A stretch of DNA of 64,000 nt. Source: an uncultured Rhodocyclaceae bacterium (lineage in GTDB: Bacteria; Pseudomonadota; Gammaproteobacteria; Burkholderiales; Rhodocyclaceae). Below the pieces are notes generated by a model. The model was given only the letters and a program-made list of their open reading frames with translations. It ran no database searches and was not told where the DNA came from. The number at the start of each line of letters is the position of its first letter. The stretch's first letter is position 1. Location: positions 804-64,803 of the forward strand of contig CAZWFC010000001.1 in NCBI GenBank assembly GCA_964632965.1, given 5' to 3'. Position numbers and translations under genes: made by a program. This document shows positions 1,116 to 47,623 of this stretch, one piece after another.

Positions 1116-3320
1116 TCAGAAGCGCAGCTTGATGCCCGCCGTGACGGTGCGCGGCATGGACAGGGTGCGGTTGTAGGCCTGGGTATAGGTGTAGCTGTTT
1201 TCCGAATACTCCTTGTCGAACAGATTGACCGCGCTGGCGAAGACATCCGTGGTCTTGTTCCAGGCGTAGCTGACGCTGGCGTTGAATACCGTGACGCCGC
1301 CCTGGCTGAAGACGGTGTTGGCGACCGAGGTCGTGTCGATCGGCATGGAGCCGATGTAGCGCAGTTCGGCGTGGGTGCGCAGCTTGTCGCCCGGCTTCCA
1401 GGTCGCGCCCAGGGTGGCGACGTCCTTCGGCGTGCCGGCCAGTTGCACGCCGAGCGGGTCGGTGACGATGCTGCCGCGGCGCGTCAGGTAGGTTTCCGTA
1501 TGGGTGTAGGTGGCCTCCAGCGTCAGGCTGTCCAGCGGTTTCCATTTGCCTTCCAGTTCCACGCCGTGCGACTGGCCGTCCTGGTCGTTGGTGTAGTACT
1601 TGACCGATGCCGGCGATCCGCAATTCACGAATCCGGCGCCGCAGATGGCGAGGACTTGCGCCGGCGCGCTCGCGTTGTTGGCTTGCGTGTAGGTGGCGAT
1701 CATCTTGCTGATGTTGTAGAGGAAGTAGGTCGCCCCGAAGGACAGCCTGCGGCTGTTGAAATCCGCTCCGAGTTCCCATCCCCTCAGGGTTTCGGGTTCG
1801 AGGTCGGGATTCGCGATGGTGGTGCTGCTGCTGGTGCCGTAGGTACGCGTAATGTTGTTGAAGCCCGGCGCGCGGAAGGCCTTGTAGGCGGCGCCGCGGA
1901 TCGAGAGCCGGTCGTTGAGTTCGTAGCGGGCGCCGACGCTGGGACTGAATGCGCTCGTCGATGAATCGGGCAGCGCCCCGCCGGTGGTCACGCCGGTCGA
2001 TGAGGTGCGTGTATTGACGCGGTCGCGGATGTTCCAACGGTCGAAGCGGCCGCTGAACGTGAGTTCCAGCGCGTCGAGTGGCGACACCTTGGTCTGGCCG
2101 AAGAGTCCGGTGAAGGTTTGCTCGCCCTTGCCATAGGTGCTGGCGTTGAAGTTTTGCAGGTTGGCCAGCGTCGTCGGCGCCAGGTAGAAATTCTCCAGGT
2201 CCGTCGCCGACAGGCGCCGGTAGTCCACGCCGAGCTGGAAGTTGCTCCAGCGGCCGGCCATGGCCTTGGAGTAGGCCACCGAGCCGCCCTGCTCCCGGTA
2301 GCGTTGCGATCCGTACTGGGAGAAGTACTGGACGATGTTGCCGTTGACCTGGGCCGCCGTGACGGCGGTCGACGTCGGGCACTTGGTCCCCGCTGTCTGC
2401 CAGTAGCACGAGGCGCCGTTGTACTTCTCGAAATTGACGAACTGCGCCCAGGCATTCGCCGTAATGCTGCTGGTCTTGTCGAGCGTCTGCGTCAGGCCGG
2501 CGGCGATGTCGGGGCTTTTCTGCACATTGTTGGCGAACTGGTAGCTGATGTCCTGGTCCTGGATGTGGTAGCCGAGGCGCAGGTAGCCGTTCAGGTCGGC
2601 CGTGGGCTTGAAGTAGGTGGTGAGCTGGAGATTGGTGTTCTTGCTGCCCACCGGCTGCTTGGCGGCGAAGCGCCACAGATGCTCGGCGGGCGTGGTCTGG
2701 TAGCCGTCGGTTCGGGACTGGTCGGCCGTCAGGTTGAAGCTCAGCGCATCGGAGAGGACGAAGTTCTTTCCCGCGGCGAAGTTGGCGGCGCCCTGTTGCC
2801 CTGCGCTCAAGCTCACTTCGCCGGCATTGTCTGCGGCGCGCCGGGAGACGATGTTCACGACGCCGGCAGCGGCCATGTTGCCCCACAGGCTGGAATTCCC
2901 GCCGCGGATCACTTCGACGCGTTCGATGTTGGACAGCGGCACCTTGAACCACTGCGTGGTCAGGTAGAAGGGATCGTGAATCGGGGCGCCGTCGAGCAGG
3001 ACCAGGACCTTGGCCGTGCCCATGCCGCGCATCCTGGTCGAATGGCCGGTCGGATCGGACTGGGCGGCCGGGATGCCGGTGAAGTTCAGGCCGGGCACGT
3101 TGCGCAGCAGTTGATCCAGCGATTGCGCCGGCGATTTATCGACATCCTCGCGCGAAACGACCGTCGTATGCAGCGGCATCTCGTCGAGACGCGCGGCGCT
3201 GCGGCTGGCCGTGACCACGATGCCGCCGAGTTCCTGTGCGCCGGAAATTTCCTCGCCCGCTGCCGCTGCTCCGTTCAGCATGGCGAAGGCAACGGAGATG
3301 GAGGTAACTGCGGTCTTCAT
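1116..3320 (-). CDS. TonB-dependent outer-membrane receptor
   Basis: ORF 1116..3485 trimmed to ATG 3320 (signal peptide MKTAVTSISVAFAMLNGAAA). Plug-domain motifs are present (IVVTASR, LDQLLRNVPGLN, RMRGMGTAKVLVLLDGAPI, VEVIRGGNSSLWG). A long barrel ends in an aromatic terminus, ...GIKLRF. Confidence 0.9.
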   Translation of the reverse strand: MKTAVTSISVAFAMLNGAAAAGEEISGAQELGGIVVTASRSAARLDEMPLHTTVVSREDVDKSPAQSLDQLLRNVPGLNFTGIPAAQSDPTGHSTRMRGMGTAKVLVLLDGAPIHDPFYLTTQWFKVPLSNIERVEVIRGGNSSLWGNMAAAGVVNIVSRRAADNAGEVSLSAGQQGAANFAAGKNFVLSDALSFNLTADQSRTDGYQTTPAEHLWRFAAKQPVGSKNTNLQLTTYFKPTADLNGYLRLGYHIQDQDISYQFANNVQKSPDIAAGLTQTLDKTSSITANAWAQFVNFEKYNGASCYWQTAGTKCPTSTAVTAAQVNGNIVQYFSQYGSQRYREQGGSVAYSKAMAGRWSNFQLGVDYRRLSATDLENFYLAPTTLANLQNFNASTYGKGEQTFTGLFGQTKVSPLDALELTFSGRFDRWNIRDRVNTRTSSTGVTTGGALPDSSTSAFSPSVGARYELNDRLSIRGAAYKAFRAPGFNNITRTYGTSSSTTIANPDLEPETLRGWELGADFNSRRLSFGATYFLYNISKMIATYTQANNASAPAQVLAICGAGFVNCGSPASVKYYTNDQDGQSHGVELEGKWKPLDSLTLEATYTHTETYLTRRGSIVTDPLGVQLAGTPKDVATLGATWKPGDKLRTHAELRYIGSMPIDTTSVANTVFSQGGVTVFNASVSYAWNKTTDVFASAVNLFDKEYSENSYTYTQAYNRTLSMPRTVTAGIKLRF

Positions 3321-3455: not shown

Positions 3456-3472
3456 TGCGGCAAAATGTCGCG
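3456..3472. promoter_or_regulatory. Candidate RegA/PrrA-type operator (TGCGGCA-AAA-TGTCGCG)
   Basis: A 17-bp near-palindrome read directly from the sequence, about 135 nt upstream of the TBDR start at 3320. It has the same architecture as the other sites listed below. Confidence 0.45.
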
Positions 3473-3924: not shown

Positions 3925-3958
3925 TGCGGCATGTCGCCGCATGCGACATCGTGCCGCA
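3925..3958. promoter_or_regulatory. Two abutting candidate RegA-type operators
   Basis: TGCGGCA-TGT-CGCCGCA (3925-3941) is directly followed by TGCGACA-TCG-TGCCGCA (3942-3958). They lie in the 127-nt gap between the TBDR stop (3988) and the small-gene start (3860). Confidence 0.45.
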
Positions 3959-11368: not shown

Positions 11369-13669
11369 TCAGAAGCTGTAGGAGACGCCGGCACGCAGGG
11401 TCAGCGGCGTGTAGGAGCCGCTGTTGCCCTGGCTGCCTATGGCGCCGACCACGTTTGAGACTCCGCCGATCGAGAACAGCGCGGCGCGGGCGGCGTATTT
11501 CTGGTCGGTGAGGTTGAGCGCATGCAGCCAGAACGACCAGTCCTTGCCCCGATAGCTGGCGCGCAGGCTGTAGAGATCCGGACGGGAGTAGGAACCGAGG
11601 CTGTTCGTGGTTTCGAGGTAATAGCTGGCCGTGTAATCGCCCTCCAGTTCCACCAGCCAGCCGGGCGCCGGCTTCACCCCGATCCGCAGGTTGACCTTCT
11701 GGCGCGGCAGGGCCTGGTAGGACTTGCCCGCATAGTCGTAAGTGGTGGTCTTGTAGTCGGTGAAGTAGGCGCGGGCGTTGGTGTAGGTGGCGCCGAGATC
11801 GAGCCAGGAAGCGGCCGCCCAGGTGAACATCGATTCCAGCCCCCGGGTGGCGAGTTGTCCGGCGGCTTCGTTGAGGGTGCAGGTCGCCCCTGCGTTCAAG
11901 GCCGCCTGTTCCGCCGCGGTACAGGTCCGCGTCGTATTGAAGCCGTTGGCTTTTGCGTGGTAGAGGGTCACGTCGTAGTGCAGGCCGAGTTCCCGGAAAC
12001 GTCCGCGGAAGCCGATTTCCCTGGTCAGCCCCCTCTCGGGCGCCAGCACCGCGCCGATCACGTTGGCGGCCTGCCCGACGGTCTTCGTATTCACCAGGCT
12101 GGAGGTGGATTGCGGGTTGAAGGTTTCGCCCCAGTTGGCCCAGACGAGATGGCTCTTGTCGAGTTCGTAGGTCGCGCCCAGGCGCCGCACATCGCCCTTG
12201 CGCGTCATCGTCACGTCCTTGTTCGTGGCGGTCCGGTCGTCGACGTTGTAGTCGATCTTGCCGAAGCGCTCGCCGATGTGAAGCCGCAGTCTTTCGAGGG
12301 GCGAGAACTCGACATGGACGAAGGGCGTGGTCTCCCGGGTTTCGGTCAACGATCCCGACGACGACAGGCTGCCCTGCGCCCACATGCCGGCCTGGGCCTG
12401 AAGCGCGTTGAAGCTGTTGTTGTAGGTGGTCGAGTCGGTCGCGACGTCGATGACCTCGGCGCCGACATAGGCAGTGGTCTTGGCCAGGTCGAATTCCTGC
12501 CGGTACATCGCCAGGGTCGTCTTCGTGGTCGCCGCCGACTTCTTGACGGTGTTCGTGACGGTTGCGCTGCCGTTGACGGCCGCACAGCCGACGGCCACGT
12601 TGTCGCAGATCACGCTGTTGGCGCCGCCGGAACCGCCGCTGCCGTTGTTGATGCCGTCGTCGGTGATCCTGCTGTGCGCGATGGAGAACTCCCCGCGCTC
12701 GCCGATCAGTTGCTGGAGCCGCAACGACGTGGTCTTGTAGGTGTCGATGTACTGGCCGAAGGTGCCGGGTACGACCTGCCGCCAGTCCTTGTCGAAATAG
12801 GTTTCGCGCAGGTTCGCGCCGTTGAGGCTCACGTTCTTCAGTTTGGCCGCCTCGTTCGCATTCAGCGGCAGCGAACCGGCCCAGCGATAGTCGTAGCGCA
12901 GCTGGCTCTGGCCGAGGGTGATCCGGGTCGAGTCGGTCGGCCGGAACTGCGCCCGTACATTGAGGCCGTCCTTGTGCTCGGCTGCGGCATCCTGGGCCGA
13001 CGGGGCGCTGCTCTTGCGCCAGCCGCCGTTGTCCATGCTGCTGCCGGTGACGATGAAACTGAAGCGGCCATCGGCGAAGCCGGTGCCGGCGCTGCCTTGC
13101 GTGCGCAGGAAGCCCCAGCTGCCGGCCTCCTGCGACAGCCTGGCCTGAAAGCGCTCCGGCGGCTGGCGGGTGAACACGCTGATCGTGCCGCCCAGTGCGC
13201 CGCTGCCATAGAGTGCGGAAGCCGGACCGGTGATGACTTCGATGCGTTCGATATCCGCACCATCGACTTCGTCGAATACCGATGTGTTGGTCGCCGTTGC
13301 GCGCATGCCGTCGATGCGGTTCTCGGTGTACAACTTGCCGCCGTCCGGAATGCGCATGTTGCGGACCATGCTGATGCCGGGCACCCGCTTGCCGAGTTCC
13401 AGCAGGTTGTTGACCAGTTGCAGGTGCTCGATTTCCTCCTTGCCCACGACGGCGCCGGAGATCGGCGTGTACTCGGTCAGCTTGCCCAGTTCGGTACGCA
13501 GTTGTATCGGTTTGTCGGTGTCCGAGGAAACGCTCACTTCCTTGAGCCGGGTTTCGTTGTCTTCGGCAACGGCGCTGCCGGCGCAGAGCAGGCCGATGGC
13601 CGCCGCGACGGCGACGGGCAGCGGACGGCGGGCGGCGATGGCGGCTGCCGCATTGGGTTTGCGGATCAT
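11369..13669 (-). CDS. TonB-dependent outer-membrane receptor
   Basis: Signal peptide ...AIGLLCAGSAVA. Plug motifs are present (VSVSSD, ELGKRVPGISM, NRIDGMR, IEVITGPASALYGSGALGGTI). The C-terminus is ...AGVSYSF. Confidence 0.9.
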   Translation of the reverse strand: MIRKPNAAAAIAARRPLPVAVAAAIGLLCAGSAVAEDNETRLKEVSVSSDTDKPIQLRTELGKLTEYTPISGAVVGKEEIEHLQLVNNLLELGKRVPGISMVRNMRIPDGGKLYTENRIDGMRATATNTSVFDEVDGADIERIEVITGPASALYGSGALGGTISVFTRQPPERFQARLSQEAGSWGFLRTQGSAGTGFADGRFSFIVTGSSMDNGGWRKSSAPSAQDAAAEHKDGLNVRAQFRPTDSTRITLGQSQLRYDYRWAGSLPLNANEAAKLKNVSLNGANLRETYFDKDWRQVVPGTFGQYIDTYKTTSLRLQQLIGERGEFSIAHSRITDDGINNGSGGSGGANSVICDNVAVGCAAVNGSATVTNTVKKSAATTKTTLAMYRQEFDLAKTTAYVGAEVIDVATDSTTYNNSFNALQAQAGMWAQGSLSSSGSLTETRETTPFVHVEFSPLERLRLHIGERFGKIDYNVDDRTATNKDVTMTRKGDVRRLGATYELDKSHLVWANWGETFNPQSTSSLVNTKTVGQAANVIGAVLAPERGLTREIGFRGRFRELGLHYDVTLYHAKANGFNTTRTCTAAEQAALNAGATCTLNEAAGQLATRGLESMFTWAAASWLDLGATYTNARAYFTDYKTTTYDYAGKSYQALPRQKVNLRIGVKPAPGWLVELEGDYTASYYLETTNSLGSYSRPDLYSLRASYRGKDWSFWLHALNLTDQKYAARAALFSIGGVSNVVGAIGSQGNSGSYTPLTLRAGVSYSF

Positions 13670-13725: not shown

Positions 13726-14136
13726 CTAGCGCGGCGATTCGGTGACGAAGGCGATCTTCGTCACCCCCGCGTTCTGCGCCACGGCCAGGATGTCGGCCAC
13801 TTTTTCGTAGGGCGTGCCGCGGTCGGCACGCAGGTGGAGTTCCGGTTGCGACGATGCGAGTTCGTTGAGGCGGGCATGGATATCGGCGCGGGTCGTCGGG
13901 ATGCCGTCGAGGTACAGGTTGCCCGGGCCGTCCAGGGCCAGCTTCACCACCACGGGCTTGTCGTCGAGCCGGGTCGAATCGACGCGCGGCAGGTCGATGG
14001 GCACGGCCTGATGGAAGAGCGGCGCGGTGATGATGAAAATGACCAGCAGCACCAGCATCACGTCGACCAGGGGCGTGGTGTTGATCTCGGCCATCGGCGC
14101 CTGGTTTGCGCCTTCGTTGAAGGAACCGAAGGCCAT
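13726..14136 (-). CDS. exbD: Biopolymer transport protein ExbD/TolR
   Basis: ORF trimmed to ATG 14136, which forms an ATGA overlap with the exbB stop. It has MAEINTTPLVDVMLVLLVIFIITAP, typical of ExbD. 136 aa. Confidence 0.9.
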   Translation of the reverse strand: MAFGSFNEGANQAPMAEINTTPLVDVMLVLLVIFIITAPLFHQAVPIDLPRVDSTRLDDKPVVVKLALDGPGNLYLDGIPTTRADIHARLNELASSQPELHLRADRGTPYEKVADILAVAQNAGVTKIAFVTESPR

Positions 14137-14957
14137 CACGCGGCCCTCGCCGTTGCCACCGCGGCGACGGCCGGGCGCGTTGCCGCGCTGGACGGGAAGC
14201 TCTCCGCCGGGCGGCGTGCGCCGGTGGTCAGGAAGGCATGCAGGTCGTGCGCGAAGCCGTCGAGCTGCGCCAGCACCAGCCGATTGCCGCGCGTCAGCGC
14301 GTTGTAGGCCAGCACGGCGGGAATGGCGACGAAAAGGCCGGCAGCGGTCATGATCAGCGCCTCGCCGACCGGGCCGGCGACCTTGTCCAGCACCACCTGA
14401 GTCGAGCCGGACAACGCGACCAGCGCATGGTAGATGCCCCATACCGTGCCGAACAGACCGATGAACGGCGCCGTCGATCCCACCGACGCCAGGAAGGTCA
14501 GGCCGCTTTCCATCCCGGCCTGGGCGTGAAGCATGTGGTTGCGCAGCGCACGGGTCACGCATTCGTTGAGGCTGACGCCGGCACCGAGGCCGCGCGCGGC
14601 ATGGCATTCCGCCGCCGCCTGGGCGCAGCTGCCGCAGTCGGCGTTTCCCGCACCCAGGTTGCGTCCCGCCGGGCAGCCGTGGATTTGCGCGGCCTGAGTG
14701 CCGGCGCGGGCCAATCCGGCGAACGCCCCGGTGCGGTCCGCGCCTTCGATGGCCGCGAGCGCTTCGGGCAAGGTGCGCGCCTGCCAGAACGTCTGCGGCG
14801 CCTGCTCCATGGCGCGGTTGAAGCGGAGCTGGAGAACGAAGCGCGTGATGGTCAGCGACCAGCCGGCGATCGACAGCAGCAGCAGCAGGACTGCCACGGA
14901 ATGGGTGACCAGATCGCCCTGTTGCCAGAAATGAGCCAAGCCGAGATCGGAGTGCAT
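14136..14957 (-). CDS. exbB: MotA/TolQ/ExbB proton-channel protein with a Cys-rich cytoplasmic-loop insertion
   Basis: Conserved ExbB blocks are present (APFIGLFGTVWGIYHAL, VAGPVGEALIMTAAGLFVAIPAVLAYN). It is 273 aa versus 236 aa for the paralog at 18904. The extra segment carries C95, C108, C111, C118 and C133. Confidence 0.9.
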   Translation of the reverse strand: MHSDLGLAHFWQQGDLVTHSVAVLLLLLSIAGWSLTITRFVLQLRFNRAMEQAPQTFWQARTLPEALAAIEGADRTGAFAGLARAGTQAAQIHGCPAGRNLGAGNADCGSCAQAAAECHAARGLGAGVSLNECVTRALRNHMLHAQAGMESGLTFLASVGSTAPFIGLFGTVWGIYHALVALSGSTQVVLDKVAGPVGEALIMTAAGLFVAIPAVLAYNALTRGNRLVLAQLDGFAHDLHAFLTTGARRPAESFPSSAATRPAVAAVATARAA

Positions 14958-14962
14958 GGAAG

Positions 14963-15634
14963 CTACCCTTGAAGGTTGAAGGTGATGGGGACCTGGACCC
15001 AGGCCGCGACCGTCTCGTCGCCGCGCCGCGCGGGAACGAAGCGCCAGCGGCTGACGGCCTCTTCGGCGGCCTGGTCGAGGCGGGCGAAGCCGCTGCTGAG
15101 CTTGATTTCGACCTTCTCGGCCAGGCCGGCGGCACTGACGCGAACCCGCAGCAGCACGCGGCCCTCTTCGCGCAGGCGGCGCGAGGCGTGCGGATAGACA
15201 GGCTTGGGGTTGTCGAGGTAATCGGCGTCGAAGCGGGCGGCTGTCACCGGCACCGCTTCGGGTGCGGCGATCGGCGCCGGGGCCGGCGCGGCCTGCGGTG
15301 CCGGCGGCTGGGGCGGTACGGCGAATGCCGCGGCCTGCGGTGCCGGTGTGTCGGCGGCGAGGACCGGCTGCGGGGCGGGTCTGGCTTTTCGCGGTGTCTG
15401 CCTGGGCGGAGGCGGCGGCGGAACTTCCGGCGCCGATTCGATCAGGCGCGCGGTGAAGGGGCGCGCCAGATCGGCGAACCGCTCGGCCGGAACGGCGAGC
15501 GCGACGAGGACGAGCAGCGCCGCATGCCCTGCGGCCACGCCGGCGAAGGAGAGCGTCTGGCCGCGCGGCTTGCCGAGCGGTGTTCCGTAATCAGGAAAAA
15601 AAAGTCCCATTGCGCCTGTCGAAGAATTTTCCAT
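14963..15634 (-). CDS. tonB: Energy transducer TonB
   Basis: N-terminal TM helix, a Pro-rich spacer (PPPPPPRQTPRKARPAPQP...) and a C-terminal TonB domain (YPHASRRLREEGRVLLRVRV...RWRFVPARRGD). The start could instead be the ATG at 15610. Confidence 0.85.
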   Translation of the reverse strand: MENSSTGAMGLFFPDYGTPLGKPRGQTLSFAGVAAGHAALLVLVALAVPAERFADLARPFTARLIESAPEVPPPPPPRQTPRKARPAPQPVLAADTPAPQAAAFAVPPQPPAPQAAPAPAPIAAPEAVPVTAARFDADYLDNPKPVYPHASRRLREEGRVLLRVRVSAAGLAEKVEIKLSSGFARLDQAAEEAVSRWRFVPARRGDETVAAWVQVPITFNLQG

Positions 15635-15730
15635 TGGCAGGCAACGCCGATCCGCCGGGTCGCGACGAAACGAAGCCGCCTATGCCTTAAGTGAGGCGGC
15701 ATTAAATCGGACACTGCCGGTGCTGGGAAT

Positions 15731-15832
15731 GCGGCACGTTGTCGCGCGGCGGATTGCCGCGCGGCATCTTGCCGCACCATCGATTCGTCATGATTGCCGT
15801 GCGGCATAACGCCGCATGCGACGCTGTGTCGC
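15731..15832. promoter_or_regulatory. Array of five GCGNC-N5-GNCGC units in the divergent tonB / TBDR control region
   Basis: Three units abut exactly: GCGGC-ACGTT-GTCGC | GCGGC-GGATT-GCCGC | GCGGC-ATCTT-GCCGC (15731-15775). They are followed by GCGGC-ATAAC-GCCGC (15801-15815) and GCGAC-GCTGT-GTCGC (15818-15832). Confidence 0.5.
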
Positions 15833-15894
15833 AGGGGCGCGGGCGGGCGCGCACCTAGAATCACGGACTTTCACGTTTCCTTCCAAAAATCATC

Positions 15895-18102
15895 ATGAAG
15901 AGTCCCGTCAGGTTCGCGCTGAAACCCCTCGCACTGCTGCTGGCCGCCGCCCCGTTCGCCGGCCAGGCGCAGGAAGCCCAGCTCACCCCGGTCGTCGTTG
16001 CGGCGCCGAAGATCGAAACGAATTCCGCCGCTGTCGCCGGGGCCGACCTGGCGCCCCTGCGGGCGTCGACCAGCGACACGGCCGGCCTGCTGCGCGACAT
16101 CCCCGGCGTCAGTCTCTACGGCGCCGGCGGCGTTTCCAGCCTGCCGGCCATCCACGGCATGGCCGACGACCGCGTGCGCGTCAAGGTCGATGGCATGGAC
16201 CTGATTTCCGCTTGCGCCAACCACATGAATCCGCCGCTGTCCTACATCGATCCGTCCAGCGTCGGCAGCGTCAAGGTGTTCGCCGGCATCACGCCGGTCA
16301 GCATGGGCGGCGACAGCATCGGCGGCACCATCGCGGTCTCCTCGGCGGCGCCCGAGTTCGCGGCGGCCGGGCAGGGCCCCCTGGTCAAGGGCCAGGCCGG
16401 CATCTTCTATCGCAGCAACGGCAATGCCCAGGGCGGCAATCTGTCGGCGACGATCGCGGGCGAGAAACTGAACCTGACATACAGCGGTTCAAGCGCGCAG
16501 TCCGGCGACTACCGGGCGGCGAAGGACTTCAAGGCGGTAAGCGCCACCGGATCGGACAAGCCGGGGAACCTGCTCCCCGGCGACGTGGTCGGGTCTTCCC
16601 GCTACAAATCGCAGAATCACGCGCTCGGTTTCGCGCTGCGCCACGAAAACCATCTGCTGGAACTGAAGCTGGGCTTTCAGGACATCCCCTACCAGGGCTT
16701 CCCGAACCAGCGCATGGACATGACCGGAAACGACAGCCAGCAGATCAACCTGCGCTATACGGGGCAATACCAGTGGGGGGCACTGGAAGCCCGCGTGTAT
16801 GACGAAAAGACGCGCCACAAGATGAACTTCGGCGACGACAAGCTGTTCTGGTACTCCACGACCACGCCCGGCATGCCGATGGATACGGAAGGGAGAAACA
16901 CCGGTGCGCTGGTCAAGGCCGACATCGCGCTTTCCGAGCGCGACATCATCCGGGTGGGCGGCGAATACCAGCGCTATCGTCTCAGGGACTGGTGGGATCC
17001 GTCCGGCACCGGCGGGATGTCGCCGCTCACGTTCTGGAACATCAACGACGGCCGGCGCGACCGTTTCGGCGCCTTCGCCGAATGGGAGGCGCGCTGGAGC
17101 CCGCAGTGGCTGAGCCAGGTGGGGTTGCGCCACGAGACCGTCAAGATGGATACGGGAACGGTACAGGGCTACAAGTCCACCGGCACCGTCTATCCGGCCC
17201 AGGCGGCGGCGTTCAACGCCGGCGACCGCAAGCGCACCGACCGCAACGTGGACCTGACCGCCCTGGCGCGCTACACGCCGGACACGAGCCAGGCCTTCGA
17301 GGCCGGCTACGCCAGGAAGGTCCGCTCGCCGAACCTGTACGAGCGCTACACCTGGTCCAGCGGCAGCACCATGGTGATGAACATGAACAACTGGTTCGGC
17401 GACGGCAACGGCTATGTCGGCAACACGGACCTGAAGCCGGAAACCGCGCATACGCTGAGCGTCACGGGCAGCTGGCACGATGCGGCGCGGGAGGCATGGG
17501 AACTGAAAGCCACGCCTTACTACACGCGCGTCCAGAACTATATCGATGCCGTGACCTGCGCCTCCGTCGGCAAGACCTGCACCACACGGACCGACGGGTT
17601 TGCCAACCTCACCCTCGCCAACCAGACCGCCCGCCTCTATGGCATGGACGTTTCCGGCCGCATGCCGCTGGCGAAAACCGCCGGCTACGGCAGCTTCACG
17701 TTTCTGGGCGGGTTGAATTACGTCAATGGCAAGAACCTGACGACGGGCGACAATCTCTACAACATCATGCCGCTGAACGTGAAGCTGGCCGTCGAGCAGC
17801 GCCTCGGCGGCTGGACCAACACCCTGGAAGCAAGACTGGTGGATGCCAAGACGCGCCTCCAGGCGGTACGCAAGGAACTCAGGACCGGCGGCTACGGCTT
17901 GCTCAACCTGCGCAGCAGCTACGACTGGAAGACAGTCCGGCTGGATGTGGGGATCGAGAATCTGCTGAACAAGCATTACGCCGATCCCTTGGGCGGGGCG
18001 TATGTCGGACAGGGCAGCACGATGTCGACGGGCGTGCCCTACGGGGTTTCCGTTCCCGGCATGGGGCGTTCGATCTACACCGGCCTGACGGTCAAGTTCT
18101 GA
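15895..18102 (+). CDS. TonB-dependent receptor, OprC/NosA-like (candidate copper receptor)
   Basis: Signal peptide MKSPVRFALKPLALLLAAAPFAGQA. Plug motif HGMADDRVRVKVDGMDL. It has a CxxxM motif (C107-ANH-M111) and an HxM motif (H308-K-M310), resembling the OprC Cu site. The C-terminus is ...GLTVKF. Confidence 0.85.
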   Translation: MKSPVRFALKPLALLLAAAPFAGQAQEAQLTPVVVAAPKIETNSAAVAGADLAPLRASTSDTAGLLRDIPGVSLYGAGGVSSLPAIHGMADDRVRVKVDGMDLISACANHMNPPLSYIDPSSVGSVKVFAGITPVSMGGDSIGGTIAVSSAAPEFAAAGQGPLVKGQAGIFYRSNGNAQGGNLSATIAGEKLNLTYSGSSAQSGDYRAAKDFKAVSATGSDKPGNLLPGDVVGSSRYKSQNHALGFALRHENHLLELKLGFQDIPYQGFPNQRMDMTGNDSQQINLRYTGQYQWGALEARVYDEKTRHKMNFGDDKLFWYSTTTPGMPMDTEGRNTGALVKADIALSERDIIRVGGEYQRYRLRDWWDPSGTGGMSPLTFWNINDGRRDRFGAFAEWEARWSPQWLSQVGLRHETVKMDTGTVQGYKSTGTVYPAQAAAFNAGDRKRTDRNVDLTALARYTPDTSQAFEAGYARKVRSPNLYERYTWSSGSTMVMNMNNWFGDGNGYVGNTDLKPETAHTLSVTGSWHDAAREAWELKATPYYTRVQNYIDAVTCASVGKTCTTRTDGFANLTLANQTARLYGMDVSGRMPLAKTAGYGSFTFLGGLNYVNGKNLTTGDNLYNIMPLNVKLAVEQRLGGWTNTLEARLVDAKTRLQAVRKELRTGGYGLLNLRSSYDWKTVRLDVGIENLLNKHYADPLGGAYVGQGSTMSTGVPYGVSVPGMGRSIYTGLTVKF

Positions 18103-18162
18103 GCCGGATTGTCGACCGTCCGCCGCGGCAGCCGCCTGCGGCGGACGATGCCGCCACCCGGC

Positions 18163-18179
18163 TGCGGCAATTTGTCGCA
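18163..18179. promoter_or_regulatory. Candidate RegA-type operator (TGCGGCA-ATT-TGTCGCA)
   Basis: Near-perfect 17-bp palindrome between the TBDR stop (18102) and the second tonB start (18265). Confidence 0.5.
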
Positions 18180-18264: not shown

Positions 18265-18900
18265 ATGGCAAGCGGGCAAACGACAGAGCGTGGAGTGGAT
18301 GCGGCGGGGCTGGCCATCGTGCTCGCCCTGCATACGGCCGTCCTCTGGGGTTTGTGGAGTCATCGCCTGATCCCGACGCCGGACGAGGCCGTGACGCTGT
18401 TCGTCAATTTCATCGCGCCGCCGGCACCCAGGGTCGAGGACCCGCCCAAGCCGCCGCCACCCAAGCCGCGGCCGGTGGAGAAGCCGCAACCCCGGCAGTT
18501 GGTCGCCGCAACTCCGGTCGTTGCGCCCACGGAATACGCCGCCCCGCCGCCCCCGCCCGCGCCGGCGATCGAGGCGCCGCCGGCCCCGGCGCCGAAGCCG
18601 GTCGGCCCGGTGACTCTCGGCTCCGAACTTTCCGTCGCCTGCCCCGAGCGCACGCCGCCGAATTACCCGTCGATCTCGCGGCGCCTCAGCGAAGAGGGTA
18701 CGGTGACCCTGCGCGTCGAACTCGACGAGCAAGGCCATGTCGCCGCGGCCCGCGTCGCCACCGGCAGCGGCCATCCGCGCCTCGACGACGCCGCGCTCGC
18801 GGCGGTGCGCACATGGCGCTGCATGCCCGCCAGCCGCAACGGCCAGCCGGTGCGCGCCGTCGCCCTGCAACCCTTCAAATTCATCCTGCAAGGAAACTGA
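18265..18900 (+). CDS. tonB: Energy transducer TonB (second copy)
   Basis: TM helix LAIVLALHTAVLWGLW, a Pro-rich linker (PPKPPPPKPRPVEKPQP) and a C-terminal TonB domain (YPSISRRLSEEGTVTLRVEL...). Confidence 0.85.
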   Translation: MASGQTTERGVDAAGLAIVLALHTAVLWGLWSHRLIPTPDEAVTLFVNFIAPPAPRVEDPPKPPPPKPRPVEKPQPRQLVAATPVVAPTEYAAPPPPPAPAIEAPPAPAPKPVGPVTLGSELSVACPERTPPNYPSISRRLSEEGTVTLRVELDEQGHVAAARVATGSGHPRLDDAALAAVRTWRCMPASRNGQPVRAVALQPFKFILQGN

Positions 18901-18903
18901 TTC

Positions 18904-19614
18904 ATGGAACAAGGACTCGGCTTTGCCCACTTTCTCACCCAGGCCGACGGCGTGGGCAAGGCCGTGCTGGGGGTGCTGCTGCTGCTCTCGGTGGCGAGCT
19001 GGTACCTCATCGTCACGCGCGCGCTCGCCAACACGCTGGCGCAGCGGAGTGCGGATGCCTTCCTCAATGACTTCTGGCAGGCCGACTCGCTCGCCGACGT
19101 TCGCCGTGCCCTGGCGGCGCGTCCGGCCGACAACGCCTTTGCCAGGCTGGTGGAGCGGGCTGCCGAAGCGGCCGAGGAAGGCGAGCGCCAGGGAACGCAG
19201 AGCCTAGCCGTGGCCGGCGGCATGGCCGAATACCTGACCCGCGTCCTTGCCAACGAGGTCGACCAGGAAGCCGCCCGCGTCGAACACGGCCTTACGGTGC
19301 TGGCTTCGGCCGGCTCGGCGGCGCCCTACATCGGTCTCTTCGGCACCGTTTGGGGCATCTACCACGCTCTGGTGCAGATCGGCATGAGCGGGCAGGGCAC
19401 CCTCGACAAGGTTGCCGGCCCGGTGGGCGAGGCACTGATCATGACCGCCCTCGGCCTGGCCGTCGCCATTCCCGCCGTGCTCGCCTACAACGCCTTCAAC
19501 CGGCGCAACCGCATGTGGCTGTCGCGCCTGGAGGGCTTCGCCCATGACTTGTATGTGCTATTGACCGTGAAGACCGGCAACGGCCAGGCGCAGCAACCGC
19601 TGGCGCAGCGCTGA
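18904..19614 (+). CDS. exbB: MotA/TolQ/ExbB proton-channel protein (second copy)
   Basis: APYIGLFGTVWGIYHAL and VAGPVGEALIMTALGLAVAIPAVLAYN. It starts 3 nt after the tonB stop. Confidence 0.9.
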   Translation: MEQGLGFAHFLTQADGVGKAVLGVLLLLSVASWYLIVTRALANTLAQRSADAFLNDFWQADSLADVRRALAARPADNAFARLVERAAEAAEEGERQGTQSLAVAGGMAEYLTRVLANEVDQEAARVEHGLTVLASAGSAAPYIGLFGTVWGIYHALVQIGMSGQGTLDKVAGPVGEALIMTALGLAVAIPAVLAYNAFNRRNRMWLSRLEGFAHDLYVLLTVKTGNGQAQQPLAQR

Positions 19615-19625
19615 GGAACGGCGAT

Positions 19626-20042
19626 ATGGCACAGGGACGCTTCGACAAGCATCGCCGCCAGGCGCCGATGGCGGACATGAACGTGGTGCCGCTGGTGGAT
19701 GTGATGCTGGTGCTGCTGGTGATCTTCATCGTCACCGCGCCGCTGCTGACCCACGCGGTGAAAATCGACCTGCCGAAGGCCTCTTCGAGCGCCAACGTCA
19801 CCAAGCCCGAGCACATCGAGTTCGGCATTCGCGAAAGCGGCGAGCTGTTCTGGAACGGCGAGGCGGTCGCCCTGGAGGCCCTGCCGCAGCGTTTCGCCGC
19901 CGAAGCGCCGAAGCAGCCGCAGCCGGAGGTGCATATCCGCGCCGACCGGCATGTGCATTACGAGAAGGTGGCTCAGGTGATGGCCCTGGCGGCCAAGGCG
20001 GGGTTGGTCCGGATCGGTTTCATCAGCGATCCGGCGCAGTAA
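19626..20042 (+). CDS. exbD: Biopolymer transport protein ExbD/TolR (second copy)
   Basis: MADMNVVPLVDVMLVLLVIFIVTAPLL, 138 aa. Confidence 0.9.
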   Translation: MAQGRFDKHRRQAPMADMNVVPLVDVMLVLLVIFIVTAPLLTHAVKIDLPKASSSANVTKPEHIEFGIRESGELFWNGEAVALEALPQRFAAEAPKQPQPEVHIRADRHVHYEKVAQVMALAAKAGLVRIGFISDPAQ

Positions 20043-20242: not shown

Positions 20243-20259
20243 TGCGACAATATGTCCAA
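20243..20259. promoter_or_regulatory. Weak candidate RegA-type operator (TGCGACA-ATA-TGTCCAA)
   Basis: One perfect and one degenerate half-site, about 125 nt upstream of the Sel1-repeat gene. Confidence 0.3.
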
Positions 20260-20382: not shown

Positions 20383-20973
20383 ATGAGAATGTTGCCGCGA
20401 ATTGTTCTGGGAGCATGCCTCGCTCCCCTGTTGATCTGGTCGAGCCTGGCATGCGGCAGCGACGCCGACGGTGATCTGCGGCACGCGGCGAAGTTGCAGA
20501 AGAACGGCGAAACCGCGACGGCTCTGGCGATCTGGAAACGCTGGGCGGAGAAAGGCAATGCCGACGCCGCCTACAACCTGGCGGTGATTCATCAGCACGG
20601 CGACGGTGTGGCGGTTGACTACGCGCAGGCCCTGCACTGGTATCGCCATGCCGCTGCACTCGGCGACCGCATCTCGGAATACCAGATCGGACTGATGTAC
20701 CAGATCGGTCAGGGCGTGGCGGCCGATGCCGCAGAGGCACACCGCTGGTTTACCGCACACCGTTCCCATCATGCGCATCACGAGCGAAGCGAACAGATGC
20801 AGACATGGCGGAAGCAGGCGGCCCGACTGATCGAGGAGAGCGACCGGCGCGAGGCACTGGTCAAGTCGCGTGCCGATAGCGCACGCGTGCTCGCCGAATT
20901 GCGGCGGCGAGCCGGCGCATCCGCAGCGCCTACCGATGTCGCTGCTGCGGCGACGGACCGGCCCATCAATTGA
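20383..20973 (+). CDS. Sel1-repeat (SLR/TPR-like) lipoprotein with a His-rich segment
   Basis: ORF 20095..20973 trimmed to ATG 20383 (MRMLPRIVLGACLAPLLIWSSLAC, a lipobox). Sel1 repeats are present (GNADAAYNLAVIHQHGDGVAVDYAQALHWYRHAA..., YQIGLMYQIGQGVAADAAEAHRWF). A His run follows: HRSHHAHHE. Confidence 0.75.
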   Translation: MRMLPRIVLGACLAPLLIWSSLACGSDADGDLRHAAKLQKNGETATALAIWKRWAEKGNADAAYNLAVIHQHGDGVAVDYAQALHWYRHAAALGDRISEYQIGLMYQIGQGVAADAAEAHRWFTAHRSHHAHHERSEQMQTWRKQAARLIEESDRREALVKSRADSARVLAELRRRAGASAAPTDVAAAATDRPIN

Positions 20974-20989: not shown

Positions 20990-21523
20990 TTGAAGCTCCT
21001 GTTCATCGACGATGACCGCCGTTTTTCAAGCGTGGCTGCCCGCGCGCTCGGGCGGCGCGGTTTCAAAGTCAGGATCGCCCCGGATGCGGCCTCGGCTCTG
21101 CGCCTGGTCGACAGTGAAACCGGATTCGCAGTGGTCGATCTGCAACTCGGCGCGGTTTCCGGCCTGACCCTGCTGCCCCGGTTGAAGGCGACGAACCCCG
21201 CGATGCGCATCCTCATGCTGACCGGCTACGCCAGCATCGAAACGGCGGTGGAAGCCATCAAGCTCGGGGCGGACGACTATTTGCTCAAGCCGGTCGATAT
21301 CGACACCCTCGTCGCGGCCTTGCGCAACGACACCGCCGGACAGCATGAACGGGCCGACGCCAAGCCGCTGCCGCTCAAACGGCTGGAGTCCGCCCACATT
21401 CGGCAGGTGCTGTCCGATTGCCGCGGCAACATTTCCGCCGCCGCGCGCGCCCTGCAGATGCATCGGCGCACCTTGCAAAGGAAGCTGGCAAAAAGCGAGG
21501 CCGGGCGAAACGTTGCGATATGA
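20990..21523 (+). CDS. RegA/PrrA/ActR-family response regulator (receiver + Fis-type HTH); no partner kinase adjacent
   Basis: TTG start at 20990, 7 nt after GGGAGG. Receiver blocks are present: LLFIDDD, VVDLQLG..SGL, MLTGYASIETAVEAIKLGADDYLLKP. The C-terminal HTH GNISAAARALQMHRRTLQRKLAK is the near-invariant RegA-family signature. Confidence 0.8.
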   Translation: MKLLFIDDDRRFSSVAARALGRRGFKVRIAPDAASALRLVDSETGFAVVDLQLGAVSGLTLLPRLKATNPAMRILMLTGYASIETAVEAIKLGADDYLLKPVDIDTLVAALRNDTAGQHERADAKPLPLKRLESAHIRQVLSDCRGNISAAARALQMHRRTLQRKLAKSEAGRNVAI

Positions 21524-22176
21524 ATATGCGGTTGCGGCAATCCGCTGAAGCGTTCTTGAAAGCGGAGCCCTTGTCCGCCGCCGCAAGTGACGATGGCACG
21601 TCGAGTGCGAGGCATCATGCACCGGGCGAGCGCATCCATGAAGCAGGCGCATCGGGTTCGGCATGGCGCGTGATATCGGGCGTCGTGCGCCTGGATGCGC
21701 CCGAAGGCGCGGACGGCCGCCTGGTGTTCGCGGGCCTCGCCGTTCCGGGAGACATCGTCGGCGCCGAAACCCGGATGTTCGGCCTGTGCTTTTTCGGCGC
21801 CACGGCGCTGACGCCCACGAAACTGTCGCCCTGGCCCGGGGCAACGGCGCCGCAGGCGGACTTCCTCATGAACGCCCTGGCCCGGGCCGAGAGACGCACC
21901 GCCAGAATGATGGGGCTGCGGGCTGGACAGGCGATCGACCGGGTCAAGCGCCTGATCCAGTTGCTGGTGCCGCACAGGGACGGCGAAGCCTTCATCGAGA
22001 TCGAGCTGCCGTCCTTGCGCGACATCGCCGACATCACCGCCTTGACCATGGAAACGGTTTCCCGTTCGTTGAGCGGCCTGCGTCGGCAAGGCATGCTCGA
22101 ACCCAGCGGCCAGCGGCGCGGCAACGGCAGGAAGAACTGCCGTTGCCGCGTGCCGGACGCCCCGGCGGCAGCCTGA
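21520..22176 (+). CDS. Crp/Fnr-family transcriptional regulator
   Basis: ATG 21520 forms an ATGA overlap with the regulator stop. It has a cNMP-binding-like beta-roll (VISGVVRLD...VFAGLAVPGDIVG) and a C-terminal HTH (LPSLRDIADITALTMETVSRSLSGLRRQGML). Confidence 0.75.
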   Translation: MNMRLRQSAEAFLKAEPLSAAASDDGTSSARHHAPGERIHEAGASGSAWRVISGVVRLDAPEGADGRLVFAGLAVPGDIVGAETRMFGLCFFGATALTPTKLSPWPGATAPQADFLMNALARAERRTARMMGLRAGQAIDRVKRLIQLLVPHRDGEAFIEIELPSLRDIADITALTMETVSRSLSGLRRQGMLEPSGQRRGNGRKNCRCRVPDAPAAA

Positions 22177-22210: not shown

Positions 22211-22227
22211 TGCGACAACATGTCGCA
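22211..22227. promoter_or_regulatory. Perfect 17-bp palindrome TGCGACA-ACA-TGTCGCA (candidate RegA-type operator)
   Basis: Read directly from the sequence. It lies 35 nt after the crp/fnr-like stop and 64 nt upstream of the small ORF that precedes SCO1. Confidence 0.55.
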
Positions 22228-22531: not shown

Positions 22532-23107
22532 ATGCTTCGCCGCGCCATGCCGATCCCCGTCCGCTTTCTCGCCGTTCTTGCCGTCGCCTTGCTTGCCGCC
22601 TGTTCCGATGCCCGCTCGCCCGCGGATGCTCCGGCCGGCGGCGATTTCGTGCTGCAATCCTCCGCCGGCCCCTTCGATACCAGGGTCTTGCGCGGCAAGG
22701 TGTTGATCCTGTTCTTCGGCTACACGAACTGCCCGGATATCTGCCCGACCTTCCTCGGCAACGGCGCGCAGGCGCTGAACCGGCTGTCGGCGGCGGAACG
22801 TGCGCGGGTGCGTCTGGTGCTGGTGGGCGTCGATCCCGAGCGCGATACGCCGGCCGGCCTCAAGGAATACACGGCCTTCTTCCATCCGGAGATGATCGGC
22901 GTCACCGGTTCGCCGGCGGAAATCGCGGCCGTGGCGAAGCTCTACGGCGCGGGTTACGTGAAGCAGCCGGCGCGGCCGGATGGCAGCTATGCCGTCGATC
23001 ACAGTGCGCAGACCTATGTGGTGGGGCCGGACGGACGGCTGGCCGCCACGCTCGATCTCGGCACGCCGGTGGACAAGGTGGTCGATACGGTGAGGAAGTT
23101 CCTGTGA
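22532..23107 (+). CDS. SCO1/SenC-family copper chaperone / thiol-disulfide protein (lipoprotein)
   Basis: Lipobox LLAAC. The CPDIC motif sits in FGYTNCPDICP, and a conserved His is in VDHSAQTYVVGPDG. Confidence 0.85.
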   Translation: MLRRAMPIPVRFLAVLAVALLAACSDARSPADAPAGGDFVLQSSAGPFDTRVLRGKVLILFFGYTNCPDICPTFLGNGAQALNRLSAAERARVRLVLVGVDPERDTPAGLKEYTAFFHPEMIGVTGSPAEIAAVAKLYGAGYVKQPARPDGSYAVDHSAQTYVVGPDGRLAATLDLGTPVDKVVDTVRKFL

Positions 23108-35837: not shown

Positions 35838-36341
35838 TCAATCCGCCAGCCGGGCCAGACAATGGCTCAGGGCGCGTTCGATGTGGCGCTGGACGGTCTT
35901 GGTGGAGACGCCGAGCCGGTCGGCGATCTGGGCATGAGTGAGTCCTTCCAGCCGGTTCAGCAGGAAGGCGTTTCGGCAGGCGGCAGGCAGGTCGTCGAGG
36001 GCGTTCGCCAGCCGTTCCACCTGCCGCCGGGCGTCTATCACGGTTTCGTGACAGGGCTGCGGGCAGATCGGTTCGAAGTCCGCATCGGCAGCGTCGAACA
36101 GGTCTTTGCGCACTTGCTGCCGGCGCCAGGCATCCACCGTCAGGTTGCCGGCCGTGGCGAAGGCGATGGCACGCGGTTCGCGCCATGACTCGGGATTGCC
36201 ATGTTGGTGAAGATTGAGCCAAGTGTCCTGCACGATGTCCTCGGCATCCTGGCTGCCGACACGGCGTGTCACGTAGGAGAGAAGGTCTTCCCTCGCGTCA
36301 TGAAACAGCGAGATCAGAAAATTGGGTTTGTTGGCCGGCAT
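35838..36341 (-). CDS. ECF sigma-70 factor (FecI-like)
   Basis: DAEDIVQDTWLNL and LEGLTHAQIADRLGVSTKTVQRHIERAL. I chose the start at ATG 36341; ATG 36386 is possible. Confidence 0.8.
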   Translation of the reverse strand: MPANKPNFLISLFHDAREDLLSYVTRRVGSQDAEDIVQDTWLNLHQHGNPESWREPRAIAFATAGNLTVDAWRRQQVRKDLFDAADADFEPICPQPCHETVIDARRQVERLANALDDLPAACRNAFLLNRLEGLTHAQIADRLGVSTKTVQRHIERALSHCLARLAD

Positions 36342-36378
36342 CGAGCGCAAATTCTGCCTGCGACACAGCGTATCCGTG

Positions 36379-36395
36379 TGCGGCAAATTGCCGCA
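36379..36395. promoter_or_regulatory. Candidate RegA-type operator (TGCGGCA-AAT-TGCCGCA)
   Basis: Perfect 7-3-7 inverted repeat in the divergent region between the ECF sigma gene and the tlpA-like/Cu-ATPase operon (start 36457). Confidence 0.5.
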
Positions 36396-46928: not shown

Positions 46929-46945
46929 TGCGACAACATGCCGCA
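46929..46945. promoter_or_regulatory. Candidate RegA-type operator (TGCGACA-ACA-TGCCGCA)
   Basis: Begins 2 nt after the stop of 46226..46927 and lies 67 nt upstream of the ATG at 47012. Confidence 0.5.
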
Positions 46946-47011: not shown

Positions 47012-47623
47012 ATGGATCGCCGCGATTTGCTCAAACTTTCCCTCGCCGCCGGCGCCGGCCTCGCCGTGCACACCGCCCAGGCGCAGCAGCCCGCGTGCGC
47101 GACCGATGGTACGCCCGCCCAGTTCACACCGAAGCGGCCGCCTGACGCGAGTCCGGCGGAGAACGACATCGGCAAGCAGCCCAAGTGTCCCTACTGCGGC
47201 ATGGACCGCAAGCAGTTCGGCCATACGCGCATGCTGGTGCATTACAGCGACGACCTGTCCGACGGCACCTGTTCCCTGCATTGCGCGGCGATCAGTCTCG
47301 CGGTGAATGTCGATCGCGAGCCGAAGGCGATCTATGTCGGCGACAACGCCGCGACTGCGGAGACGAAGCCGCTGGTCGAAGTGGGCAAGGCGACCTTTCT
47401 CATCGGCAGCGGCATCAAGGGCGTGATGACCAAGCGCAGCAAGATGGCCTACGGCACGGCCGACGTCGCCAGGGCGGCGCAGGCCGCGCATGGCGGCGAA
47501 CTCGCCGGTTTCGATCAGGCGTTGCTGGCGGCCTATGCCGACATGGCCGCCGACGTCGCCATGATCCGCAAGAACCGCGAGGAGCGCCGCAAACGCATGA
47601 TGGATCAGCAGCACAAGGGATGA
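47012..47623 (+). CDS. Tat-exported Cys4 (TRASH-like) / NosL-like metal-binding protein, paralog 3
   Basis: MDRRDLLKLSLAAGAGLAV. Motif CPYC-x24-CSLHC. NosL-like block IYVGDNA...ATFLIGSGIKGVMT. Tail RKNREERRKR. Very similar to paralog 2. Confidence 0.75.
   Translation: MDRRDLLKLSLAAGAGLAVHTAQAQQPACATDGTPAQFTPKRPPDASPAENDIGKQPKCPYCGMDRKQFGHTRMLVHYSDDLSDGTCSLHCAAISLAVNVDREPKAIYVGDNAATAETKPLVEVGKATFLIGSGIKGVMTKRSKMAYGTADVARAAQAAHGGELAGFDQALLAAYADMAADVAMIRKNREERRKRMMDQQHKG

Follow-up and report, generated by a model that had tools for sequence, protein, structure and literature searches.

A five-box array of candidate RegA-type operators between divergent TonB-dependent uptake genes of an uncultured Rhodocyclaceae bacterium

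The regulation of copper import in bacteria is much less understood than that of copper defence. The known import controls are CopR, which controls oprC, and the CruR upstream open reading frame (ORF), which controls crtA. Here we describe an array of five GCGNC-N5-GNCGC boxes in a 64,000-nt stretch of DNA from an uncultured Rhodocyclaceae bacterium (contig CAZWFC010000001.1). The whole stretch is called the window throughout, and both the simulations and the matrix scan cover it. The array lies between a minus-strand tonB gene and a plus-strand gene for a distantly OprC-like TonB-dependent receptor. By motif it most likely belongs with the known RegA/PrrA/SpdR operators and extends that known kind, the same layout being present in many related bacteria. 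New are the sharpness of the motif, its fixed class-II-like placement and the recurrent exact 15-bp stacking, as are the orphan state of the candidate regulator and the link to an OprC-like receptor and copper chaperones in Betaproteobacteria.

In Caulobacter crescentus, the RegA homologue SpdR binds CTGCGAC-N5-GTCGCAG in electrophoretic mobility shift assays (PMC4830024). The palindrome of the window is almost identical, one site (22211) reading CTGCGAC-AACAT-GTCGCAT. However, SpdR sites are single and rare and control stationary-phase genes (cspD), whereas those of the window are multimerised and lie upstream of TonB-dependent uptake and copper-chaperone genes. In Rhodobacter, senC is co-encoded with regA. 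A GCG inverted repeat has been proposed as the PrrA/RegA site; in Alphaproteobacteria the motif is described as degenerate, with variable spacing, and no clear consensus emerged from chromatin immunoprecipitation (ChIP) with sequencing (PMC4263372). RegR controls nos, nor and copCAB genes, with two putative RegR boxes per promoter (PMC4064962). The window resembles these PrrA/RegA/RegR systems of Rhodobacter and Bradyrhizobium in the Fis-type helix-turn-helix (HTH), in GCG-containing inverted repeats, often at least two per promoter, and in the tie to respiration and copper proteins. It differs in having a sharp 17-bp palindrome with a fixed 5-nt spacing, a fixed distance to the -10 element and exact stacking at 15 or 17 bp. 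In Methylomonas sp. DH-1, ChIP found RegA enriched at a TonB-dependent receptor gene, a tonB-exbB-exbD operon and feo (PMC13274454), the first two being kinds of genes considered here as well. However, that organism is a gammaproteobacterial methanotroph, and the study interpreted the function as uptake of iron and gave neither a motif nor a site architecture (PMC13274454). In the window, the receptor resembles OprC distantly and the genes that share its boxes point to copper.

OprC, NosA and CrtA are outer-membrane TonB-dependent copper importers tied to cuproenzyme maturation. In the CrtA family some operons carry PCuAC and ScoI genes, and crtA is controlled by the CruR upstream ORF together with Rho (PMC12914433). 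The window receptor keeps the CxxxM motif, and PCuAC genes follow its orthologs. Unlike OprC and NosA it falls under the NCBIfam TonB-copper cut-off, and while those importers are under CopR or CruR/Rho, the control element in the window is apparently a RegA-type box array. The NtrC enhancer, TGCACC-N5-GGTGCA, is likewise composed of 17-bp palindromes read by a Fis-type HTH, and its adjacent sites promote oligomerisation. NtrC, however, has an AAA+ domain and acts distantly on sigma-54 promoters, whereas the regulator of the window has no AAA+ domain and its presumed boxes adjoin a sigma-70-type -10/-35 frame. A literature search for RoxR together with oprC found no paper.

The earlier note had placed five boxes at 15731-15832, three of them exactly abutting, and both statements are borne out letter by letter. 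Tandem Repeats Finder reports boxes 1-3 as 3.0 copies of a 15-bp period (15731-15775). The boxes are listed below, each with its core, its 17-bp unit and the score of the unit in a matrix derived from orthologs.

Box 1: core 15731-15745, GCGGC-ACGTT-GTCGC, GCGGCACGTTGTCGC; unit 15730-15746, TGCGGCACGTTGTCGCG, 18.8 bits; promoter-proximal for the minus-strand tonB.
Box 2: core 15746-15760, GCGGC-GGATT-GCCGC, GCGGCGGATTGCCGC; unit 15745-15761, CGCGGCGGATTGCCGCG, 12.4 bits, a strict GCGNC-N5-GNCGC match; adjoins box 1 at 15 bp.
Box 3: core 15761-15775, GCGGC-ATCTT-GCCGC, GCGGCATCTTGCCGC; unit 15760-15776, CGCGGCATCTTGCCGCA, 21.1 bits; adjoins box 2 at 15 bp.
Degenerate relic box: 15785-15799; only the right half, ATTGCCG, is present; in 15-bp register with box 4 and below the matrix threshold.
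Box 4: core 15801-15815, GCGGC-ATAAC-GCCGC, GCGGCATAACGCCGC; unit 15800-15816, TGCGGCATAACGCCGCA, 21.8 bits; distal box of the receptor promoter.
Box 5: core 15818-15832, GCGAC-GCTGT-GTCGC, GCGACGCTGTGTCGC; unit 15817-15833, TGCGACGCTGTGTCGCA, 17.2 bits; promoter-proximal box of the receptor promoter.

Boxes 1, 3, 4 and 5 reach 17-22 bits with the matrix, which was trained on other genomes only. A 25-nt direct repeat (D1) makes 15792-15816 84% identical to 15752-15776, and this repeat together with the relic half-box indicates that the array grew by duplication. All five boxes have GCGNC and GNCGC half-sites separated by about one turn of the helix, the window encodes a family regulator that carries the conserved recognition helix, and the placement at the promoter is conserved upstream of orthologs, as fits operators of the RegA/PrrA/ActR/SpdR type. 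The intergenic region measures 260 bp, from the tonB ORF (14963-15634, minus strand) to the receptor ORF (15895-18102, plus strand). It is a divergent control region, as had been claimed, lying between a minus-strand tonB-exbB-exbD-receptor string and a plus-strand receptor-tonB-exbB-exbD string.

The loose pattern GCGNC-N5-GNCGC is by itself not very specific. It has 39 matches in the window against 16.65 +/- 3.91 expected, and those outside the array lie mostly in ordinary coding DNA. The clustering is another matter: of 300 second-order Markov simulations of the window, none placed more than three matches in 102 bp, where five are observed, and none produced a pair abutting at 15 bp, of which there are two. 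The box cluster is far outside chance. The earlier note had allowed that the pattern might prove equally dense elsewhere in DNA of this composition; within the window the loose pattern is indeed common, but a cluster of this kind never arose in the simulations.

No public assembly gave an exact match to the receptor protein. The 17-bp unit was derived from 80 loci encoding relatives of the receptor (59-73% amino-acid identity, and one at 94%). Nearly all are from metagenome-assembled genomes (MAGs), most of them labelled Betaproteobacteria (Gallionellaceae, Sulfuricellaceae, Methylophilaceae, Rhodocyclales, Burkholderiales). In 35 of the 80 a strict GCGRC-N5-GYCGC match is found no farther than 400 bp upstream of the receptor, most often 55-160 bp ahead of the start codon. 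The consensus of 41 ortholog sites is the palindrome T-GCGRCA-WNW-TGYCGC-A, in which positions outside the search pattern are also biased (A6 84%, T10 84%, T/A flanks 73%). A 17-bp matrix trained exclusively on these foreign sites finds 11 sites of at least 15 bits in the window, against 0.17 expected: four of the array boxes and those at 3456, 3925, 3942, 18163, 22211, 36379 and 46929. By direct reading all 11 are intergenic, each upstream of genes. The sites outside the array, with one weaker site added, are as follows; hexamer positions are counted from the end of the box.

3456-3472: box of 24.6 bits upstream of a TonB-dependent receptor gene (1116-3319, minus strand, real ATG at 3319); TACTAT at +24..+29 on the minus strand.
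3925-3958: double box with 17-bp spacing, 19.8 and 21.3 bits; CAAAAT at +23..+28.
18163-18179: near-consensus box TGCGGCAATTTGTCGCA, 27.4 bits, between the receptor stop codon and the second tonB, 86 bp upstream of the tonB ATG at 18265.
20243-20259: weak box TGCGACAATATGTCCAA, 14.8 bits, upstream of the Sel1-regulator gene pair; TACGCT at +24..+29.
22211-22227: box of 26.4 bits upstream of a small membrane ORF (22293) and a Sco1/SenC gene (22532-23107; Pfam SCO1-SenC); TAGCAT at +24..+29.
36379-36395: box of 26.1 bits between a divergent extracytoplasmic function (ECF) sigma gene (35838-36386, minus strand; Pfam Sigma70_r2/r4) and a TlpA-like redoxin gene (36457, plus strand); CAGAAT at +23..+28 on the minus strand.
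46929-46945: box of 25.1 bits upstream of nosL (47012-47623; Pfam NosL); TAATAT at +23..+28.

The double box at 3925-3958 has the layout of boxes 4-5 and lies 64 bp upstream of an unannotated 99-aa ORF (3851 to 3552, minus strand) that matches no family. The label TlpA-like for the gene at 36457 was assigned by reading the sequence; there is one AhpC-TSA/Redoxin member among the box-adjacent ORFs.

With the matrix (at least 9 bits), one or more boxes turn up no farther than 350 bp upstream of the receptor in 52 of the 80 loci, so that the alignment of orthologous regions suggested in the earlier note does recover the motif. The density of sites is 2.67 per kb upstream of receptors against 0.094 per kb in the rest of the loci, a 28-fold excess that is partly circular, the training sites having been chosen in the same loci by the strict pattern; the circularity affects neither the window scan nor the positions unused in site selection. 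Where a locus has at least two boxes, a distance of exactly 15 bp accounts for 11 of the 21 inter-box spacings and is the commonest two-box spacing. The idea of a multimerised operator thus stands as far as it concerns a conserved operator, often built of 15-bp pairs; a single shared operator fits the array less well than two promoters placed back to back. Locus L058, which holds the nearest relative of the receptor gene, could not supply an orthologous intergenic region, its receptor gene directly following exbD.

In a test blind to proteins, metagenome contigs were searched for three abutting boxes, which gave 70 matches (L081-L150). Of these, 53 repeat one identical 15-bp unit in tandem within GC-rich DNA and have nothing to do with the regulator motif. 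The loose pattern is thus not diagnostic by itself, and searches that rely on a pattern only call for caution. Genuine arrays, with non-identical GCGRCA...TGYCGC units followed by ATTCC and a -10 hexamer, number about 17. Thirteen of these adjoin identifiable genes, namely TonB-dependent receptors or RegA/RegB-like genes: orthologs of the window receptor in L101, L114 and L140, other TonB-dependent receptors in seven loci, and RegA-like regulators or a RegB-like kinase in L090, L101, L119 and L141. In L101 one triple array is flanked by a divergent receptor gene and a RegA-like gene, and a -10 hexamer is found to either side of it. The tonB-facing triple of the window has spacer sequences, that of box 2 included, in common with the receptor-facing triples of L114 and L140. 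With five boxes, three of them abutting, the array of the window is the largest when set beside the 80 receptor loci; two metagenomic arrays have four abutting boxes. Among 55 non-receptor ORFs adjoining strong boxes, other TonB-dependent receptors (7), Iron_traffic/YggX proteins (6) and PCuAC proteins (5) recur, as do the kinase, the regulator and TonB. The pattern occurs in many iron- and sulfur-oxidising and methylotrophic Betaproteobacteria, whose record is chiefly metagenomic. For a regulator family with sites that have resisted clear definition in Alphaproteobacteria, it supplies a clean motif and a promoter geometry, both computable, and the naturally stacked sites, from one to five boxes, are a ready series for tests of cooperativity. 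As a separate observation, the small Iron_traffic (YggX-like) genes are divergent from a boxed receptor promoter, about 60-250 bp from the box, in L013, L019, L027, L029, L052 and L056, all of them Gallionellaceae-type loci.

The relation of the boxes to promoters was examined in 51 ortholog promoters, anchored without gaps on the receptor-proximal box. Conserved after the box are TTCCC at +1..+5 and a hexamer TAnAAT at +24..+29, with A at 0.86 in hexamer position 2 and T at 0.80 in position 6. With the hexamer taken as the -10 element, the box would span about -52 to -36, its centre near -44. The proximal box directly adjoins a very poor -35 element, and from this geometry we infer an activator that substitutes for the -35 contact. 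The corresponding elements of the window are the following.

15856-15861, plus strand: putative -10 TAGAAT of the receptor promoter, at +23..+28 after box 5.
15724-15729, minus strand: TTCCCA, a weak element at the -35 position directly after box 1; TTCCC is kept in orthologs and in the metagenomic triple arrays.
15701-15706, minus strand: putative -10 TTTAAT of the tonB promoter, at +24..+29 after box 1.

Box 5 is separated from TAGAAT by 22 nt, one base less than in the ortholog consensus. The minus-strand sequence beyond box 1, with TTCCCA and then, 23 nt from the box, a -10-like hexamer, has the layout of the 51 ortholog promoters. The same frame is seen at the window sites 3456, 3925, 22211, 36379 (minus strand), 46929 and 20243. 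A terminator scan of 15560-15960 found none, nor any terminator-like tails. The putative -10 hexamer and start site of tonB overlap with an inverted repeat, GCCGCCT-N12-AGGCGGC (15676-15701), which might serve as a second operator, such as one for a repressor, or form a hairpin in the leader.

A candidate binder is encoded at the end of the plus-strand string, behind a lipoprotein gene.

20384-20973, plus strand: Sel1-repeat lipoprotein (Pfam Sel1; signal peptide with LAC lipobox); the true start is probably the ATG at 20384, not 20095.
20990-21523, plus strand: RegA/PrrA/ActR-like response regulator, REC plus Fis-type HTH (Pfam Response_reg and HTH_8), the receiver-domain aspartate lying in a VVDLQL motif; candidate binder of the boxes.

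The best solved relative of the regulator is PDB 3rqi (deposited as 'response regulator protein', E = 6e-41). The recognition helix MHRRTLQRKLAK is common to the window regulator, 3rqi and the RegA-like regulators linked to receptors in other loci, and the HTH NISAAARALQMHRRTLQRKLAK is nearly identical in all of them. Of the 80 loci, 17 encode a regulator with about 50% identity at a distance of a few kb or less from the receptor. A membrane kinase usually precedes it, with ActS_PrrB_HisK as best NCBIfam match and with a GGSTNPF motif; GGXXNPF is the quinone-site motif of RegB. The RegB/RegA-like pairs are usually divergent from the receptor with a box in between, as in L002, where a perfect palindrome, TGCGGCAATATGCCGCA, occupies the 125-bp gap between the kinase-regulator operon and the receptor. 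With this architecture, a helix shared with receptor-linked regulators and a family that binds GCG inverted repeats, the regulator stands as the plausible candidate the earlier note had named. The weak box at 20243 suggests that the Sel1-regulator pair is autoregulated. The other candidate named there, a Crp/Fnr-like HTH protein (about 21663-22176, plus strand), is encoded between the response regulator and the Sco1 box and has no Pfam or NCBIfam match at the thresholds used. Nothing points to a role for it at the boxes, and it was rejected as a binder, the boxes being unlike the TTGAT-N4-ATCAA of the Crp/Fnr type. Boxes for Fur, Zur, CueR and CopR were likewise rejected, on dissimilarity of motif and without a formal scan.

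Taken together, these observations make it quite probable that the boxes are RegA-family operators at two divergent promoters, and we lean, less firmly, towards the regulator at 20990-21523 as the protein that itself binds them. The array would consist of two sigma-70-type promoters back to back. The minus-strand one, with boxes 1-3 at centres of about -44, -59 and -74, would drive tonB-exbB-exbD plus the receptor gene that follows, and the plus-strand one, with boxes 4-5 spaced 17 bp and centred at about -43 and -60, would drive the OprC-like receptor gene. Each 17-bp palindrome would take one regulator dimer, its GCGRC half-sites being one helical turn apart. The phosphorylated regulator at the proximal box most likely activates, replacing the missing -35 element, and the extra upstream boxes would raise occupancy through dimer-dimer cooperativity. 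What the data establish is the motif together with its conservation, its fixed geometry and the genes that it accompanies. Activation rather than repression, the cooperativity, the identity of the regulator and a redox and/or copper signal are all parts of the scheme that we infer from the sequence comparison. The earlier note had suggested that the array could control both long gene strings. Divergent promoters are indeed indicated, but the array is not the sole controller of some 15 kb, because the strings carry further internal boxes (3456, 3925/3942, 18163 and 20243).

Besides the circularity already mentioned, several observations weigh against this reading. The best NCBIfam match of the regulator, ActR_PrrA_rreg, scores 148.3 bits, under the equivalog cut-off of 250, although the receptor-linked regulators of related genomes (165-203 bits) are also under it. 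A tblastn search with the RegB-like kinase of L002 found no such kinase in the 64-kb window, so that the regulator is an orphan within that distance. The sub-cut-off score and the missing kinase leave room for a different signal, or for another RegA paralogue that reads the boxes. As for the array itself, box 2 is weak (12.4 bits), and the tonB-side hexamer TTTAAT has T in place of the conserved A at position 2. A simple sigma-70 consensus scan of 15560-15960 called no promoter, and box 18163 has no clear -10 at the canonical distance. The promoters are therefore deduced from the box-anchored ortholog alignment; the strict scan passed over TAGAAT at 15856-15861 because there is no -35 match. 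A box that overlaps or adjoins the -35 position is, moreover, also compatible with repression.

It is possible, if on the doubtful side, that a canonical RegB/RegA redox system elsewhere in the genome reads the boxes, the locus being part of a global redox regulon and the orphan having another target or acting as a modulator. The complete kinase-regulator pairs adjoining the receptor in 17 related loci and the lack of a RegB-like kinase in the window favour such an arrangement, and since the recognition helices are indistinguishable, either RegA-type protein could bind. However, the orphan regulator ends the receptor-tonB-exbBD-Sel1 string behind a weak box of its own, which is typical of a dedicated, autoregulated factor. 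A bolder proposal gives the orphan a far larger part: without RegB, the paralogue would have become the dedicated master activator of a regulon for copper acquisition and cuproprotein maturation that is conserved in Nitrosomonadales, Rhodocyclales and Burkholderiales, and the abutting 15-bp boxes would set dimers on nearly opposite faces of the helix, giving a higher-order filament and switch-like bidirectional firing. We rather doubt this and offer it as speculation; if true, it would mean a logic of copper uptake distinct from the known CopR, CueR and CruR systems. Repression, with the regulator blocking the -35 region at each promoter and the array tightly shutting off the uptake genes when metal is plentiful, appears unlikely. 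Metal-uptake receptors such as OprC and NosA are classically repressed by their metal, the proximal box adjoins the -35 position, and multiple adjacent sites can serve tight repression. However, no usable -35 hexamer is there to be occluded (TTCCC in orthologs, GGGGCG at the receptor promoter), which is the signature of an activator-dependent promoter, and members of the RegA family mostly activate from comparable upstream sites. In R. sphaeroides all direct PrrA target operons but one are positively regulated (PMC4263372), and in Methylomonas RegA up-regulates receptor, tonB and feo genes (PMC13274454).

Two further explanations dispense with a regulator. That the palindromes are structural repeats, like repetitive extragenic palindromes or bacterial interspersed mosaic elements, or 5'-leader RNA hairpins acting on mRNA stability or DNA structure, is very improbable. 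Each box can form a hairpin of 6-7 bp, the boxes are dispersed through intergenic DNA, and a 170-nt region folds at z = -4.1 against shuffles, but such a fold follows from the stacking of palindromes. There is no compensatory covariation: the variable stem pair R4/Y12 behaves independently (Fisher p = 0.41, with an A.C mismatch in 7 of 25 distinct sites), which favours recognition by protein. The boxes also stand at a fixed distance upstream of the conserved -10 hexamer and would therefore be mostly untranscribed. Rfam, at gathering and permissive thresholds, found no riboswitch or small RNA in the array region, only sub-threshold microRNA noise, and, as mentioned earlier, terminator-like tails are lacking. 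Least credible of all is that the cluster has no function and arose by chance, from the GC-richness of the sequence or through recent tandem duplication of 15 bp. The commonness of the loose pattern, the trivial repeats that make up most of the metagenomic triple matches, and the relic half-box, which shows that duplication occurred, speak for it. Yet the three abutting units differ in their spacers while every half-site position is kept, the 300 simulations gave neither five boxes nor any abutting pair, and unrelated metagenomes contain homologous triple arrays that have the same ATTCC and -10 downstream.

The genes served by the boxes bear on function. Those next to the array, not yet listed, are the following.

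11369-13669, minus strand: TonB-dependent receptor downstream of exbD (Pfam Plug and TonB_dep_Rec_b-barrel).
About 13726-14130, minus strand, start approximate: exbD; the ExbD domain is in the C-terminal part of ORF 13726-15135.
14136-14957, minus strand: exbB; tblastn matches of 42-63% to exbB genes of related loci.
14963-15634, minus strand: tonB (Pfam TonB_C, 74.1 bits), first gene of the tonB-exbB-exbD-receptor string.
15895-18102, plus strand: distantly OprC-like TonB-dependent receptor (Pfam Plug and barrel).
18265-18900, 18904-19614 and 19626-20042, plus strand: second tonB, exbB and exbD (Pfam TonB_C, MotA_ExbB and ExbD).

The description of the plus-strand receptor as OprC-like holds in a limited sense. 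Its best solved relative is OprC (6fok), but the match is weak (64.7 bits), and it reaches 130.8 bits against a cut-off of 472.45 in NCBIfam TonB-copper (TIGR01778). The copper site of OprC is CxxxM-HxM; CANHM of the receptor aligns with CPNRM of OprC, so that CxxxM, the part covered by the alignment, is kept. Copper-linked genes recur around the boxes: Sco1, NosL and the TlpA-like redoxin in the window, and in L002 two PCuAC copper chaperone genes after the receptor ortholog. Because boxes precede receptors, the second tonB, Sco1, NosL, the ECF sigma/TlpA-like pair and the regulator's own operon, the regulon would be an autoregulated one that serves uptake through TonB, probably of copper, and the maturation of cuproproteins. 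The gene content is best read as pointing to copper acquired for the assembly of cuproenzymes; iron may be the metal instead. The prediction is thus of a RegA-type, probably redox-linked regulator that drives the OprC-like receptor, its own TonB-ExbBD and chaperones of the Sco1, NosL and PCuAC types.

Positions 1116-47623 of the window form a dense metal-uptake island, with seven TonB-dependent receptors and two TonB-ExbB-ExbD sets. The island further holds two NosL, two DsbD_2, Sco1/SenC, the TlpA-like redoxin, a PepSY_TM protein and an HMA P-type ATPase, and also two ECF-sigma/FecR pairs. The body of the receptor gene (16058-18093) is 98.9% identical in nucleotides to positions 6164-8199 of L058, a contig of a Sulfurimicrobium MAG. 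The identity ends abruptly at 16058, at about codon 55, and L058 has exbD directly before the receptor in place of the box array; the break is either a recent recombination breakpoint or a sign of a chimeric MAG contig. After the receptor stop codon and before the box at 18163 there is a GC-rich hairpin, CCGCCGCGGCAGCCGCCTGCGGCGG (18119-18145), which may act as a partial terminator and so set the second tonB apart from the receptor.

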